Virus record (IMG/VR): IMGVR_UViG_2703718776_000018
Strand: one strand, 5' to 3'
Origin: a virus
Lineage: Duplodnaviria > Heunggongvirae > Uroviricota > Caudoviricetes
DNA: 18,590 nt
The translations under genes and the position numbers were made by a program. This document shows positions 1 through 10,106 of the stretch, one piece after another. The notes beneath the pieces are model-generated. The model made no database searches. It was not told where the DNA came from and saw nothing but the letters and a program-made list of their open reading frames with translations. How positions within the stretch are numbered: position 1 is the first letter of the stretch; each line of letters opens with the position of its first letter.

Positions 1-748
1 GGTAGTCCCTGCGGATATTTGCGATACGGGAATGCAGTCGCTGTATTTTGCGTTTCTGCTTCTGCCAGTTGTTGCTGAATTTGACCTTGCGGCTTAACTG
101 TCGCTGAAGTCTCGCCAGCTTCTTCTGGTTTTTCTGAAAACTATTTACAGGTTCAAAGACTGTGCCATCTGACAGCGTGGCGAGTTTAGCCACGCCAGCA
201 TCCAGTCCGACCATTGATGCTGAAGGGTGAACAGGAGTGGATACCTCTCTTTCTGTCTGAATACTGATGTACCACTTACCGCAGGACTGGCTGACAGTAA
301 CATTTTTCACAATACCCGTGACCTGACGGCTATTCCGGTAGCGCATCCAGCCAAGTTTCGGCAGAAAAATACGGCTGTTTTCCTGATCGAGCTTAACACC
401 CTGCGGGTAGCGGAATGCATCATTCTGTCCCCGCTTTTTGAATCGGGGAAAAGCTGCCCGATTCTGGAAGAAGTTTTTGTAAGCCCGCTCAAGGTCTTTC
501 AGTGACTGTTGCAATGGCTGTGAGGGAGAATCTTTAAGCCATTCGGTTTCAGTGTCTTTTTTCCACTCAACCAACCAGGAAGCCATTTTCGTGTAAGGGA
601 TGTATTTTTTACCGGCCTCATGATTCTCATTCTGAAGCGCCAGAGCACGGTTGAAAACGAAACGACAAGCTCCGGCAAAGCGCCTCATTTGACGCTCCTG
701 TTGACCATCTGGTTTTAACCGGAATTTGAATGACACCTGTTGTTTCAT
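1..748 (-). CDS. tnpB: IS200/IS605-family TnpB (OrfB) accessory protein, N-terminal 249 codons only; the 3' part lies beyond the window start
   Basis: Reverse-strand frame is open from the window edge to the ATG at 748-746 (own translation). It begins MKQQVSFKFRLKPDGQQERQMRRFAG, contains VGLDAGVAKLATLSDG (RuvC-I Asp box) and ends at the edge with QRLHSRIANIRRDY, both typical TnpB segments. It is absent from the ORF track because there is no stop codon inside the window. Confidence 0.85.
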   Translation of the reverse strand, partial: MKQQVSFKFRLKPDGQQERQMRRFAGACRFVFNRALALQNENHEAGKKYIPYTKMASWLVEWKKDTETEWLKDSPSQPLQQSLKDLERAYKNFFQNRAAFPRFKKRGQNDAFRYPQGVKLDQENSRIFLPKLGWMRYRNSRQVTGIVKNVTVSQSCGKWYISIQTEREVSTPVHPSASMVGLDAGVAKLATLSDGTVFEPVNSFQKNQKKLARLQRQLSRKVKFSNNWQKQKRKIQRLHSRIANIRRDY

Positions 749-847
749 GTCACTATTTTAAGCAAAAATAGCCGGGAGGAAAACTGTGCCTTATATCCCC
801 ACTATGAGGAGCGTAGGGGGCGGCACATTGGATAAGGCGTAACAGGG
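1..847 (-). mobile_element. Partial IS200/IS605-family element (tnpB-only, IS1341-like arrangement); inner boundary not resolved, somewhere in 749-847
   Basis: tnpB runs off the window edge and no tnpA lies between it and the next gene. An AT-rich hairpin (ctatttt / aaaatag, 752-770) abuts the tnpB start, as expected for a subterminal structure in this family. The boundary itself is inferred, not seen. Confidence 0.5.
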
Positions 848-3835
848 ATGAGCTTAAGCGATCAGGTGGTAATGGCCACCAGCATAGAAACGCTGATCGA
901 GCTGCTAAAGAACCTGCCCGATTATGGGCGGGTTTCGTATGTGGTGACAGCGAAGGGAGACGAGGTAAAAACAGCGTTTGATATCGTCGATGCCTCAGCT
1001 ATTTTGGTATCCAATACTCTGGATGGGAAAATTAATCCTGACTATCCCCAGGAACTTCAGCCGCGCGACCGGACCCGCGCATCCAGCCTTCTTCAGGTTA
1101 ACCAGATATCCAAAGATTTGCGGCCTGCTCAGCTTACCGATTCCGGATTATCCAGCCATGGCGCACCGATAATTGGTGAGGACAATGCAGTTGAGTCAGG
1201 TAATGGACGTACCATGGGGATCATTAAAGCCTATCAGGACGGTAATGCGGATCGGTATCGGGAGTACCTGATTGAACATGCGACCGAATTCGGCATACGT
1301 ACTGAAAAGGTTGAATCAATGACGGCTCCGGTACTGGTGCGCCGCCGGTTAACGAAGGTTGACCGCGTTCAGTTTGCCAAGGACTCAAATATTTCTGATC
1401 TTCAGGAAATGGCAGCCAGTGAAAAGGCTTTTGTTGATGCCGACAGCATAACACCGGCGATGATGGCGCTGTTTAATCCGTCAGAAAGCGGAGATCTGCT
1501 TAGCCGCAGTAATGACGCGTTTATTCGCGGATTTATGACGCAAGTTGGTGCCACACAGGCGGCTGGCCTTGTAACTGAAGATGGGCGACCAACACGGCAA
1601 CTTGTAGACCGTATACAAAACGCGATCTTTGCCAAGGCATATAAGGATGCGCGCCTGGTAAGGATGGTTGCAGAAGAACCTGATCCGGATATGCGTAATG
1701 TTCTGACGGCGCTTAATGCGGCAGCCAATGATTTTGTCCAGATGCAGGCTTTATCAGGAGAAGCGCACAAGCAGGCTGTGACAACTATTGTTGATGGCAT
1801 TGAGACAGCGGATAGCCTCGATAAAAAGGCGCTGGCGGCATTGAAAGATGCGGTAGACCTGGTAAGGCAATCGAAGGAGTCAGGCCAGCATATTACCGAT
1901 GTTATTGCTCAGGGGGATATGTTCAGCGAAATGGCCCCGGAAGTGAAAGCACTCGCGTTGTTCATCGTCGCGAATAACCGTAGCGCGAAGCGTATGGCCA
2001 CCGCCTTTAAGTTGATGGCTCAACGTATCAATGATGAGTTACAGCACCAGGGCCAGGCGCTGGGGGATATGTTTGGCGGCGGCGATGTGTCGTTACAGGA
2101 TATCCTTCGCCAGGTATCTCAGGAACTGGAAAACGAAGGTATGCAAGGGATATCCGGCGGTCTTTTCGAGTCAGCTTCCGGCGGTAGTTACAACGGTGTT
2201 GCTCCATATACCAGTTTGCTATTACATCGAGCATCCGGCATCAAAGACATTATTCATCTGATCAGGCTGCTTTCCCGTAAAGATCCCCAGGATGAACAGC
2301 TTGTACAAGTGCTTGCGCATTTTGTTCGAATGCCTGTTGCCGACGTGAAAAAATGGTGCCGATTATTCGGTATCAGCAATTCGTTACTTCGCGGCTTGTT
2401 AAATCACGCATCCTCCCTTGGGCGCGATGGCTTTGACGAGATAGCGCAGGCGATAAAAAACGGAGATATGCCACCAGCTATTGACTGGTTTTCCATTCGC
2501 CCAACCAGGGTGAAAGCATTCCTTAGCGCGGCGCATTCGGCATCACCATTGGCAGAAATGGTTCAGAGGTTGTCGCTCATATTCACAGACCATACCGCGT
2601 TGGGTGATCTGACTCTGGACGAGATGAAAGAAGCCTCCATTCAGTGGGCCGATCAACAAAATGAGGTTAACTCAGACTTCTTGCCAGCATTCAGGAAGGC
2701 CGTTAGTAAAGCGGATGATGCCCGTGGAATTCTGAAGGCATTTAAGGCATTGCAAAGTCGTGTTAATAAACATGTCGGTGATATCGATGGGGTAACGGCG
2801 GAAGGCCGGGATATCCTTAAAGAGCACGGCATAACGCCAGAGTTTATTGATGAGATCAGGACTGATATGCAGCGTGAGGTCGTATCGTCCCTGCAAATCG
2901 TAGCCAGAGCGTTGGCGGATGCTAATCCGAAGAGTGCGGCCATTGTTAACCGGGTTATTGGTGATATTGAAGCATCGGAGGGCATGGGGGCGCTGAAACT
3001 CTTCCTTTCGCGAGCGTTTAATCCTAACGGCAATATTCTCCCTGGCATTATTGGTGAGGCTAAAAAGTATGTCAGTGAAGAAGAACTTGAGCAGCTTGAC
3101 CAACTACTTAAGCGATTCTCATATAACCCGCAGACACGCTGGCAAATGAATCAGCGAAGTATGGGTTCGGTCCACGAGAAAGTGTTATCTGCCATGAACA
3201 GTGCGATCGCAAACTCATCCGTATCTGAAGAAAAAGCTCTTGAGTGGGCCGACTCTTTTATCACAGAAGAAGTGGAAGAAGCCCGCGCTGGACAGAATGG
3301 TGGGATAGACCTGCGCAAGGAACTTGCTGATATTTATCGCCTGACCGGCGGGAAAATATCGACCTTATCAAAGGTAGTTCACCACCAGGGAAGGGCATAT
3401 GCAAATCTAAATGGTGTTGTTGCTGTCAATTTGAACGATAAAAATGCAAGTGCACTGTGGCACGAGCTGGGTCATCATCTTGAGTACAGTAACCCTGGTT
3501 TGTTAGAGAAAGCCCGGTCATTCCTGAAGGCCAATGTTGAAGGGGATAAGCCATCTTTCGTTAATATCGGTGGGCGTGGCAAGCCTGAATGGTGCTTCAG
3601 ATCTCGATTGAGTAATATTTATATGGCGAAGGTATACCCGCCAGCCTCAGTAAGTAACACCGGGAAAATTCGGCAGAAATCACCGACTATTTCCAAAACG
3701 TCAGCAACGGAAGTATTCTCTATGGCTCTTCAGTTGTATCATGACAAAGAGGCCGCTGCCGCATCACTGATGAATGGTGACGGATTGCTGGAACTGTTAT
3801 TAGGTGTGGCAAAGGAGCTAAATAATGCAGATTAA
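848..3835 (+). CDS. Large 995-aa protein with an N-terminal ParB/Srx-like motif region and a C-terminal HExxH zincin-like motif; polyvalent-protein-like, possibly a virion-associated anti-defence protein (P1 Ddr-like?)
   Basis: Long uninterrupted ORF. Residues 63-73 read NPDYPQELQPR and residues ~116-127 read SGNGRTMGIIKA, with spacing reminiscent of the ParB N-terminal domain. HELGHH lies at residues 872-877 (nt 3461-3478). In-frame stop 4 codons upstream (833-835); the only SD-like sequence (TAAGG, 833-837) is about 10 nt from the ATG. Confidence 0.8.
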   Translation: MSLSDQVVMATSIETLIELLKNLPDYGRVSYVVTAKGDEVKTAFDIVDASAILVSNTLDGKINPDYPQELQPRDRTRASSLLQVNQISKDLRPAQLTDSGLSSHGAPIIGEDNAVESGNGRTMGIIKAYQDGNADRYREYLIEHATEFGIRTEKVESMTAPVLVRRRLTKVDRVQFAKDSNISDLQEMAASEKAFVDADSITPAMMALFNPSESGDLLSRSNDAFIRGFMTQVGATQAAGLVTEDGRPTRQLVDRIQNAIFAKAYKDARLVRMVAEEPDPDMRNVLTALNAAANDFVQMQALSGEAHKQAVTTIVDGIETADSLDKKALAALKDAVDLVRQSKESGQHITDVIAQGDMFSEMAPEVKALALFIVANNRSAKRMATAFKLMAQRINDELQHQGQALGDMFGGGDVSLQDILRQVSQELENEGMQGISGGLFESASGGSYNGVAPYTSLLLHRASGIKDIIHLIRLLSRKDPQDEQLVQVLAHFVRMPVADVKKWCRLFGISNSLLRGLLNHASSLGRDGFDEIAQAIKNGDMPPAIDWFSIRPTRVKAFLSAAHSASPLAEMVQRLSLIFTDHTALGDLTLDEMKEASIQWADQQNEVNSDFLPAFRKAVSKADDARGILKAFKALQSRVNKHVGDIDGVTAEGRDILKEHGITPEFIDEIRTDMQREVVSSLQIVARALADANPKSAAIVNRVIGDIEASEGMGALKLFLSRAFNPNGNILPGIIGEAKKYVSEEELEQLDQLLKRFSYNPQTRWQMNQRSMGSVHEKVLSAMNSAIANSSVSEEKALEWADSFITEEVEEARAGQNGGIDLRKELADIYRLTGGKISTLSKVVHHQGRAYANLNGVVAVNLNDKNASALWHELGHHLEYSNPGLLEKARSFLKANVEGDKPSFVNIGGRGKPEWCFRSRLSNIYMAKVYPPASVSNTGKIRQKSPTISKTSATEVFSMALQLYHDKEAAAASLMNGDGLLELLLGVAKELNNAD

Positions 3836-4145: not shown

Positions 4146-4274
4146 CAGGAATTGGCATAGAATTGATTGTTCAAATTTCATCCATCACATAGACGACTTC
4201 ATGTTATTTGCCTGATAATTATGGCCTTAATAACCCATGTATATCTTTTGGGTTATATTCTTATCTTTAACAAG

Positions 4275-4320
4275 GTTATAAGAGCGACAATGATAAATTT
4301 ATCACTATCGCTCTTATAAC
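4275..4320. repeat. 46-bp near-perfect palindrome: 13-bp perfect arms (GTTATAAGAGCGA / TCGCTCTTATAAC) enclosing a 14-bp perfect inner palindrome TGATAAATTTATCA; possible bidirectional terminator or protein-binding site
   Basis: Read directly from the sequence; only 2 mismatched positions across 46 bp. Sits between the convergent 106-aa (+) and 95-aa (-) genes. Confidence 0.8.
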
Positions 4321-4348
4321 TCTTTGTTAGCTATAGCTTTAAACAAAT

Positions 4349-4636
4349 TTAGTTTTGAGGCAATGCAACAAAAGTCAGCTCTTGATCTTTGATTAATGCT
4401 TTTGTTTGTTTGGATGTAATTCCCACTTTAGTTTTTACATCATTGTGGAGCTTCTTATACGCTTTTATTTCATCTGCTGTATATCGGAAGCCATTTGCAC
4501 TGTTACTGGACAGTTGAAGTGCGATTACGTCATCACTGACACCCGCATCGCTTAGCTTAGCTATGCGGGTAATAGTGTGGCCTGCGCGAGTGTTTGGGGT
4601 GGATATTTTGTCTAAGAAATTGTTCAGTTTTTCCAT
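4349..4636 (-). CDS. Hypothetical 95-aa protein in an AT-rich cassette; possible HTH-like segment
   Basis: ATG at 4636 with SD GAGGT 8 nt upstream on the reverse strand. Bounded by the palindrome at 4275-4320 and the terminator at 4857-4884. Local GC is clearly lower than the flanks. The segment TITRIAKLSDAGVSDDVIALQL loosely resembles an Xre-type HTH. Confidence 0.65.
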   Translation of the reverse strand: MEKLNNFLDKISTPNTRAGHTITRIAKLSDAGVSDDVIALQLSSNSANGFRYTADEIKAYKKLHNDVKTKVGITSKQTKALIKDQELTFVALPQN

Positions 4637-4856
4637 TGTTTACAACCTCTTACTTGAGTTTATTGCCAGTAGAATTGCCACTATTCTTTTGCCTCAACGA
4701 ATCACAATGTACTGGAATAAGAAACTATGAGCAATACTTACGCTTTGCGAATACAGAAGATGAATAATCAACTTATTACTAAAATGTTAATAATATTATT
4801 CTGTTACATAGTGTTCGCTATAACAATCGGGAGTTGAATGCTAATTCAATAAATAA

Positions 4857-4884
4857 AGAACCCGCCAATTGGCGGGTTCTTTTT
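4857..4884 (-). terminator. Rho-independent terminator (10-bp stem AGAACCCGCC/GGCGGGTTCT, loop AATT) with U-rich tracts on both sides
   Basis: Perfect GC-rich hairpin directly after the stop of the 262-aa reverse-strand gene (stop 4883-4885); followed by TTTATTTATT on the reverse strand and TTTTT on the forward strand. Confidence 0.8.
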
Positions 4885-5671
4885 AATCACTTTCCACTTC
4901 TCCCGTGGTGTTTTCTTGCAGTTCTGTTAATGCAGCACGACATAGGTTCCGGGCATTGGCTATAGCCACACTTTTGACTTCATCCGTCATCGTGCAGGTA
5001 ATGTACTGATCTAGTTCTTCATCGCGGATGATGCTTTTGCCAATCAGAAACTGTATTTGCCAGAGCAGATCGGCATCCATAATCAGAATTTCTGCCGGGC
5101 CTTCAGGGCCAGCCGGGAAGGAAACATAAGACTGTTTGCCCAGGCCGACAACTCGACAACTTGCTTCAAGAATTGCGCGCTTGAGGTCTGACTTTATAAC
5201 GGAAACAGGTTGATTTTCACCAGTGATTACGCCGTTGACATGGAAAGGCATGTAGCTTGAAATTCGCTCTACTTTCCATACGCCAGCAAGCGATCCTTCA
5301 TGCAGCACAATGGGGGTAACCGCGAGTTTCATCTCACCATATAACTGCTGGCAGATAGCTGGATTGCTGAATACATCCAAAGGTTCACACTCAAACAGCG
5401 GCGCAATCTGCATGAGGTCCATCATGGTCATCCCTGGGGTACGAGCAGTAATGAATCTGCGCATACCAGTATCCATTGCGCTCCAGATTGCTACACCATG
5501 CTTTTTGCTCACTTCTTCAGTAAAGCCAAGGTGGCACATGATGGTTTTTTCGATAGCCAGATCAGAGATAGAAACCGTTTCGCCTGGCACTCCATCATTA
5601 TTGACGGTCACTTCGACACTCTGGCCATTACGTAGGCGGTATTGAATGGTTTTAGTATTTTGTGCTGTCAT
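4883..5671 (-). CDS. Hypothetical 262-aa protein downstream of ssb; function unknown
   Basis: Uninterrupted ORF with ATG at 5671, ending at a strong terminator. No motif recognisable by eye. Confidence 0.75.
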   Translation of the reverse strand: MTAQNTKTIQYRLRNGQSVEVTVNNDGVPGETVSISDLAIEKTIMCHLGFTEEVSKKHGVAIWSAMDTGMRRFITARTPGMTMMDLMQIAPLFECEPLDVFSNPAICQQLYGEMKLAVTPIVLHEGSLAGVWKVERISSYMPFHVNGVITGENQPVSVIKSDLKRAILEASCRVVGLGKQSYVSFPAGPEGPAEILIMDADLLWQIQFLIGKSIIRDEELDQYITCTMTDEVKSVAIANARNLCRAALTELQENTTGEVESD

Positions 5672-5868
5672 AGTCTTTTCTCTGCTTAAAAACTGATGTA
5701 TTGCGCCTTCAGGTTGGTTAGGAATGTTTTCCCACCAGCGAAAGCAATATCTCGGGGTGTTCTATTCGTTAAAAGCGCGTGCCATTGCCAACTTTGGCGT
5801 TTTTGAGCGAGTTCGTGCTTTTGTCGGCGTCTGGACCACCGCTTTTTTTTCAGTCGTTTTTTACACAT

Positions 5869-7375: not shown

Positions 7376-10106
<2,731 letters not shown>

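Follow-up and report, generated by a model that had tools for sequence, protein, structure and literature searches.

A probable single insertion of a tnpA-less IS609-family element between ddrA and ddrB of P1-like phage-plasmids

The DNA analyzed here, called the window, is the whole 18,590-nt stretch of the IMG/VR virus record IMGVR_UViG_2703718776_000018, assigned to the Caudoviricetes. It begins inside a tnpB gene, which is followed by an open reading frame (ORF) of 995 codons. An earlier note on this DNA had proposed that an IS200/IS605 insertion sequence (IS) removed or displaced the native gene and promoter upstream of the 995-codon ORF, which might then be silenced or be transcribed from the IS. 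The ORF is ddrB of phage P1, and its upstream neighbor and promoter are intact; the result chiefly corrects the annotation. The tnpB gene belongs to what is, with a probability that we put at roughly 85%, a tnpA-less IS of the IS609 family, present as a single insertion in the darA anti-restriction/late operon.

On the minus strand of the window, positions 2 to 748 form a stop-free frame of 249 codons whose translation starts MKQQVSFKFRLKPDG, and the tnpB ATG is the reverse complement of positions 746 to 748. This frame is matched by the Pfam families HTH_OrfB_IS605 (E 2e-16) and OrfB_IS605 (E 9e-24), and it covers the helix-turn-helix and WED-REC region together with the first RuvC aspartate, D183. 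The distance from the tnpB ATG to the ddrB ATG at position 848 is 99 nt (749 to 847). The Pfam matches, an alignment to PDB entry 8EXA and this gap bear out the placement of an IS200/IS605 tnpB directly upstream of the 995-codon gene, at a distance earlier given as 100 bp. The same description had tnpB ending before the large gene; the spacing stands, but the end that faces ddrB is the 5' start of tnpB, so the two genes are divergent. No obvious Shine-Dalgarno (SD) sequence precedes tnpB. The 995-codon ORF is 96 to 98% identical in nucleotide sequence to ddrB of P1, P7, and other Punavirus genomes. DdrB belongs to the Dar anti-restriction system of P1 and is packaged in the virion (PMC12810830). 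An in-frame TAA at 833 to 835 is followed by four sense codons and then by the ddrB ATG. This stop and the weak SD before ddrB had both been seen correctly in the earlier note; the stop is the original ddrA stop, and the SD is native P1 sequence. The features of the locus are listed in Table 1.

Table 1. Features at the tnpB-ddrB junction, in window coordinates
Feature	Position	Strand	Basis and remarks
tnpB 5' part, codons 1-249 of 402	1..748	-	Translation, Pfam; runs past the left window edge
Weak hairpin plus T-run (GCCAGCTTCTTCTGGT TTTTCTGAAA), antisense within tnpB	114..139	+	Hairpin match L003 3114-3129 = window 114-129; two sites versus 1.9 expected, chance level
Sigma-70-like match ATGACA-18-TATTTT, 9/12, reading towards ddrB	730..759 (= L003 3730-3759)	+	Two sites versus 1.8 expected, chance level
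IS left end (LE), 83 nt	749..831	-	Boundary by alignment with P1
Inverted repeat, 7 bp and perfect (CTATTTT-AAGCA-AAAATAG), in the leader of tnpB, a few nucleotides before the ATG	753..771		Sequence, predicted hairpin
TTAT target/target-adjacent motif (TAM), ATAA on the plus strand, directly 5' of the LE	832..835	-	Flank comparison
Native P1 stretch: last base of the final ddrA sense codon, old ddrA stop, 12-nt spacer with weak SD	832..847	+	P1 alignment
ddrB (995 aa), intact	848..3835	+	Pfam ddrB-ParB, E 4e-39; P1/P7 homology

The part of the element beyond the left edge of the window was taken from contig LOCZ01000293.1 (L031), which was reached through the exact DdrB protein of the window and agrees with the window over 9835 nt with 0 mismatches. 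This leftward extension supplied the complete element of 1335 bp with both of its ends, including the region at the tnpB 3' end where the guide RNA had been expected to lie outside the window. The full tnpB ORF of 402 codons is uninterrupted in L031 and is also present in RCS47 and SJ46. Its product matches Pfam PF12323, PF01385, and PF07282 and aligns over its full length with the TnpB of ISDra2 (8EXA/8H1J; E 9e-52). In this alignment, for which residues 1 to 249 come from the window and the remainder from L031, D183 pairs with D191, and the equivalents of E278 and D361 and the CxxC..CxxC zinc finger are conserved.

By megablast, IS-free P1-type genomes match the window only from position 832 on; RCS47, SJ46, and vB_EcoM-813R1 match all of positions 1 to 1500. 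Positions 749 to 831 are absent from the IS-free relatives, and the interval from 749 to 847 is thus not, as a whole, native upstream sequence. Alignment of P1 with three IS-bearing phages located a 1335-bp insert between GCAGC and ATAAGG of P1, with zero bases duplicated and zero lost, and the ends of the insert are not inverted repeats. P1 reads GCAGC/ATAAGGCGTAACACGGATG at this point and the window reads ...CATTGG/ATAAGGCGTAACAGGGATG. The right boundary of the IS in the window is therefore 831/832, and positions 1 to 831 are the left 831 bp of the element. The element inserted 3' of a TTAT, with one base between it and the ddrA stop codon and 16 nt between it and the ddrB ATG. In P1, ddrA ends ...GAG GCA GCA TAA and ddrB begins 12 nt further on. 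The end of the IS contributes G-TGA, and ddrA now ends GCG TGA and still has 121 codons. Read in the orientation of the IS, the 5' flank ...CGCCTTAT is followed by the 83-nt LE (CCAATGTGCC..., reading CCAATGTGCCGCCCCCTACGCTCCTCATAGTGGGGATATAAGGCACAG...AAAATAGTGAC), the 402-codon tnpB, and the right end (RE), ...CCACGCCCTTCGGGGCGTGGAGGATGTCAC, and the 3' flank begins GCTGCCTCTTTAATG...; the precise empty junction is GCAGCATAAGG. The LE is bordered by the tetranucleotide TTAT in three chromosomal copies of IS609, in the copy of plasmid pJIE250-3, and in every P1-like copy examined. The cleavage sites of IS609 are TTAT/TCAA (Venturini et al. 2019, PMC6906374). The element would have arrived in one event of single-strand peel-and-paste transposition, 3' of TTAT in a P1-like phage-plasmid.

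The surrounding operon is unchanged. The order darA-ddrA-[tnpB]-ddrB-hxr was found in 813R1, RCS47, SJ46, pHeN100_02, pSvP1, an Escherichia albertii plasmid, and L031. In L031, lydA, lydB, hdf, darA, and ddrA are intact on one side of the IS and ddrB and hxr on the other, and the order lydA-lydB-hdf-darA-ddrA-ddrB-hxr is, apart from tnpB, that of P1 in this contig and in the other IS-bearing genomes. The box of the late promoter LPdar, AAGTTACTT-TGCA-TACCAT, is present upstream of lydA in L031. The ddrA gene, with its 121 codons, is intact to the left of the IS in RCS47, SJ46, 813R1, pHeN100_02, and L031, which contradicts the proposed removal or displacement of the upstream gene. In pSvP1, an "IS609-like sequence" was already listed by Venturini et al. 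(2019, PMC6906374), who also record the IS609 copy of pJIE250-3. The pSvP1 element is the insertion studied here, with the order ddrB-insQ-ddrA and the same spacing. The insertion has thus already been reported and is an ordinary finding.

To place the element among known ISs, it was compared with IS609, which was found in 5015 of 5426 complete E. coli genomes. Nucleotides 100 to 1334 of the element are 94 to 96% identical to the tnpB and RE of E. coli IS609. Chromosomal IS609 carries a divergent tnpA of 143 codons that starts 7 nt from tnpB, TTAT 5' of the LE, an LE hairpin CCCCGTCC-TTCA-GGGCGGGG, and an RE hairpin followed by AGGATGTCAA. The P1-borne element has in common with it the TTAT target, the RE hairpin followed by AGGATGTCA, the terminus GATGTCA(A/C), and the LE motif GGGGATATAAGGC(G/A)C(G/A)GTTTTCC. 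Its RE hairpin, CCACGCCC-TTCG-GGGCGTGG, is strong and IS609-like (fold z -3.5). The loop of this hairpin is flipped between copies, since the plus strand reads CCACGCCC-CGAA-GGGCGTGG in RCS47-type copies (L003 2510-2529) and CCACGCCC-TTCG-GGGTGTGG in SJ46-type copies (L004 2510-2529). The change resembles inversion of a palindrome rather than four point changes, and it alters the loop of the omega RNA/TnpA hairpin.

Unlike IS609, the P1-borne element has no tnpA, and it is diverged over its first 99 nt, a stretch that takes in the tip of the LE, its inner hairpin, and 16 nt at the start of tnpB. The outer LE stem is retained with compensatory changes, from GCGCC/GGCGC in IS609 to GTGCC/GGCAC in the P1-borne element. 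The inner LE hairpin, CCCC(T/C)AC..GTGGGG with a 10-nt loop, differs from that of IS609, as do the bases 5' of it; it is also unlike the RE hairpin, and its fold z is -1.3, compared with -4.3 for the canonical LE. At the other end, the 4 nt 5' of the RE hairpin are GAAT in the P1-borne element and GGAT in IS609, and the terminus is TCAC instead of TCAA. All P1-like copies with a recovered right end finish GATGTCAC, whereas the chromosomal and pJIE250-3 copies finish GATGTCAA. A tblastn search of the window and L031 with IS609 TnpA returned only one match, of 29.6 bits. That match (TnpA residues 63 to 101; window 9627-9758, plus strand, antisense to prt) is without the HUH motif and was rejected as chance. 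Since only 83 nt lie between the tip of the IS and the tnpB ATG and there is no TnpA match, the element is non-autonomous, as are the tnpB-only forms of the IS1341 type.

The copy in pJIE250-3 (NZ_MN510445; L024 3579-4918) is also tnpA-less; its short LE is joined to tnpB by a TTT..TTAAAATAGTG leader, and it is flanked by TTAT. It lies at another site, just after the gene for the head-processing protein (pro), and the ddrA-ddrB junction of this plasmid is empty. Unlike the copy between ddrA and ddrB, it has the canonical IS609 LE hairpin and the TCAA end. The different site and the canonical LE identify it as an independent event, and its existence indicates that the tnpB-only architecture is a natural mobile form. 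The inverted repeat in the tnpB leader of the window is partly kept in the pJIE250-3 copy.

The distribution of the element was examined using its LE variant and its junctions. The LE variant is present in 75 PLSDB plasmids, and the IS-ddrB junction is likewise present in 75 PLSDB records; with the uninterrupted ddrA-ddrB site in about 356 records, the IS is carried by roughly 17% of P1-like plasmids. Among complete E. coli genomes, the LE variant occurs at 66 places in 64 genomes, all of them on plasmids and 0 on chromosomes. In IMG/VR, 12 of 12 hits share the ddrB-side junction, and the nine hits with the right end in the fetched stretch share the ddrA-side junction and the length of 1335 bp. 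Two exact-pattern scans of 185,579 species-representative genomes, which diverged relatives would escape, gave 0 hits. The hosts of IS-bearing plasmids include E. coli, Salmonella, and E. albertii, and the P1-borne copies differ from one another at up to 51 of 1335 positions. That every copy found with this LE is at one site points to one old insertion that would no longer be moving. The absence of tnpA, the divergence of the inner LE hairpin and its 5' neighboring bases from IS609, and the RE terminus TCAC in place of TCAA likewise argue that the element is immobile. Inheritance would be vertical and by homologous recombination among P1-like plasmids.

Some individual records call for comment. 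For the E. albertii plasmid NZ_CP099904.1, two places were reported, and the ddrB-adjacent copy is the one inspected. A second copy in NZ_CP029117.1 was considered as a sign of mobility and rejected, as this record is a linear 121-kb assembly whose ends overlap in low-quality sequence, and both copies are beside ddrA. In 813R1 (L001 6550-6560, ddrB region), homopolymer frameshifts affect tnpB and ddrB is split. These frameshifts and the NZ_CP029117.1 overlap (L009 1-5000) are probably sequencing or assembly artefacts and not signs of pseudogenes.

In P1, ddrB lies inside the LPdar late operon and has no promoter of its own, so the earlier suggestion that the insertion removed a native promoter does not hold; the LPdar box is still in place in L031. 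The ddrB ORF has its full 995 codons in the window, RCS47, SJ46, and P1. The ratio of nonsynonymous to synonymous substitution rates (dN/dS) for ddrB is 0.07 to 0.16 between IS-bearing genomes and 0.07 to 0.19 across all pairwise comparisons. Because ddrB is full length and under purifying selection, silencing of the gene is unlikely. No strong terminator was found on the plus strand of the IS, and no combination of an Lpa box and a -10 element, as in a P1 late promoter, was found between the IS and ddrB. The numbers of sigma-70-like and terminator-like sites equal the shuffled expectation, so neither the outward-reading promoter match nor the hairpin with T-run in Table 1 is reliable; the latter is the sole candidate block to operon read-through on this strand. 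The ddrB gene would be expressed from the Lpa-dependent LPdar late transcript, which would cross the IS antisense to tnpB. We infer such read-through to be the likely route of ddrB expression. The sole loss for ddrB would then be its tight 12-nt coupling to ddrA. With the upstream neighbor and the promoter intact, there is no reason to think that the Dar system is broken, and the locus offers an example of an IS200/IS605 element that landed in a tightly packed phage operon at almost no cost.

To assess whether TnpB could still be guided, the 3' end of tnpB and the RE were searched on the tnpB strand for RNA families. Sub-threshold Rfam matches were obtained to HgcC (22.6 bits, against a gathering threshold of 50), sot0042, and RAGATH-18, and the HgcC alignment crosses the end of the IS and takes in the first flanking bases. 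The putative omega RNA region folds with a z of -3.2 relative to shuffled sequence. The predicted omega RNA ends ...GGAGGAUGUCAC and continues into a guide of about 16 nt, GCUGCCUCUUUAAUGU. As in ISDra2, the tnpB 3' end and the RE should together encode the omega RNA, and the flank should provide its guide; the TAM is TTAT here and TTGAT in ISDra2. The predicted guide, GCTGCCTCTTTAATGTTGGC..., is antisense to the 3' end of ddrA, and in the empty site its match is preceded by TTAT. TTAT with a perfect 24-nt match to the guide is present in P1, P7, pJIE250-3, Ro157c2YLVW, and 673R5, which are five of the seven IS-free relatives. The other two, JL22 and phi456 (L027, L028), have TGAAGAGGCAGC in place of TAAAGAGGCAGC, a single T-to-C change that falls 11 nt from the insertion point, at position 11 of the guide. 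With an omega RNA from its 3' end, TnpB would cut the empty site TTAT/GCTGCCTCTTTAATGT, which would be normal retention/homing of the IS605 type. The native 3' end of ddrA also has a terminator-like hairpin with a T-run (L003 2460-2480, minus strand), which on the tnpB strand starts 16 nt past the right end of the IS, directly after the point where a guide of 16 nt would stop; such sites occur at chance-level frequency.

The tnpB ORF is intact in 13 of 15 copies, and the two exceptions are error-prone records. Among P1-borne copies, the dN/dS of tnpB is 0.17 to 0.19. This low ratio was considered as proof of selection in the phage and set aside, since alleles imported by gene conversion from chromosomal IS609 confound it. 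In pHeN100_02 (L008), 12 variable sites within IS nt 875 to 941 have the alleles of chromosomal IS609 and are unlike RCS47-type copies, and a 5' block is common to SJ46-type copies and chromosomal IS609. In the alignments, these shared blocks are evidence of apparent gene conversion between plasmid and chromosomal IS609 copies. TnpB and its predicted omega RNA are probably still functional.

Several other explanations of the locus were weighed against a single old insertion. That the upstream gene and promoter were deleted or displaced, leaving the 995-codon gene silenced or driven by the IS alone, would suit the 99-nt gap without a convincing promoter, the weak SD, and the single chance-level sigma-70-like site reading out of the IS. 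However, ddrA continues intact across an insertion of 1335 bp that cost no P1 sequence, which refutes the deletion, and the native arrangement, in which ddrB follows ddrA after 12 nt without a promoter of its own, is still served by LPdar. Together with the selective constraint on full-length ddrB in IS-bearing lineages, these points leave this explanation with next to no probability. Equally little can be said for a domesticated, non-mobile RNA-guided regulator resembling TldR that would be a regular part of the Dar operon. Its fixed position, the lack of tnpA, and the preserved ORF are as such a regulator would have them, but the catalytic D-E-D triad and the zinc finger are retained, the LE, RE, and TTAT target are recognizable, and the guide corresponds to the flank, as in ordinary IS copies, and not to a promoter elsewhere. 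The element is moreover missing from about 83% of P1-like plasmids, including P1 and P7. Somewhat less remote, and still improbable, is an active non-autonomous IS that is mobilized in trans by the TnpA of chromosomal IS609 and for which the ddrA-ddrB junction is one recent landing site. Most E. coli genomes contain IS609, some with an intact tnpA, and the tnpB-only IS609 at a different TTAT in pJIE250-3 indicates that this architecture can move. Against such mobilization, all copies found with the P1-borne LE are at one site, with none on E. coli chromosomes or, by exact pattern, in species-representative genomes. The inner hairpin of the LE, with the bases on its 5' side, differs from the LE and RE hairpins of IS609, the RE ends TCAC and not TCAA, and the up to 51 differences among P1-borne copies indicate an old insertion.

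A further explanation, tentative and open to real doubt but well ahead of the three above, is that the element spreads as a selfish gene drive that does not depend on a transposase. TnpB with its omega RNA would cut the empty ddrA-ddrB junction of co-resident or co-infecting genomes and would spread by break-stimulated recombination (homing) or by exclusion of IS-free rivals, which would explain a frequency of about 17% across diverged backbones. Retention/homing is an established mechanism of IS605-family TnpB (PMC10055086, PMC10690162), and a TnpB gene drive on a plasmid has been demonstrated (Mears et al. 2025, PMC11870625). In favor of a drive here are the intact RuvC D-E-D triad and zinc finger, the preservation of tnpB in most copies, the perfect TAM and guide match in most IS-free relatives, and the spread of hosts over E. 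coli, Salmonella, and E. albertii. The IS also occurs on several flank haplotypes that are seen IS-free: in the flanks of 17 IS-bearing and 7 IS-free genomes, diversity is equal within and between the groups, with no fixed differences even in the junction-proximal 300 bp, and both major left-flank haplotypes are found with and without the IS. This pattern is compatible alike with homing, with pervasive recombination among P1-like genomes, and with rare precise excision. For the mosaic flanks, general homologous recombination is just as good an explanation, and the IS is itself a mosaic. Encounters should also be limited by the roughly single-copy state of the P1 prophage and by the mutual incompatibility of P1-like plasmids; 83% of these plasmids are still IS-free, and the activity of this TnpB is a prediction. 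The likeness to the retention/homing systems described by Meers et al. (2023, PMC10055086) and by Mears et al. (2025) is that the guide records the insertion site, that sister replicons have an empty site with TAM and target, and that the replicon is plasmid-like. Unlike in those systems, the cognate transposase is missing, the LE looks degenerate, and the replicon is a temperate phage. With the transposase missing and the LE degenerate, any drive would be decoupled from transposition. The stronger proposal, that the cassette is a transposase-independent RNA-guided homing element or gene drive locked in place, converting or excluding IS-free genomes of the P1/P7 type, appears unlikely to us on the sequences compared. 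If homing did occur, JL22 and phi456, with their T-to-C change, would carry a candidate escape allele. If TnpB is active, P1-like plasmids, many of which carry genes for extended-spectrum beta-lactamases (ESBLs), would be a natural system for TnpB retention/homing without a transposase.

A single, immobile insertion of a tnpA-less IS609-family element thus remains the preferred reading, and certain points weigh against it. Its immobility is argued from distribution and from the LE sequence, and the identical flank diversity of IS-bearing and IS-free genomes could reflect occasional precise excision. The signal of purifying selection on tnpB is confounded by the mosaic structure of the P1-borne copies, in which some blocks are shared with chromosomal IS609. 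The Rfam hits in the putative omega RNA region are all below their gathering thresholds. Read-through and polarity are inferred, as is the production of an omega RNA. The lost translational coupling, or the hairpin with T-run inside tnpB, could also lower DdrB levels.

Fragments of IS609-type tnpB are present in unrelated phage records. In the record of the filamentous phage If1 (U02303, "ORF348"), 214 bp are 97% identical to tnpB at window positions 1 to 214, and Morganella phage IME1369_01 has 732 bp at 95% identity to positions 1 to 732, annotated as "putative virulence protein." Downstream of hxr, window positions 4150 to 5700 contain two minus-strand ORFs of 95 and 262 codons. The region after hxr holds a porin gene (ompC/nmpC/ompD) in pHeN100_02, P7, and JL22, isaB-IS1-isaA in P1, and a dGTPase gene in pJIE250-3, and it is a variable cargo hotspot beside the Dar operon.

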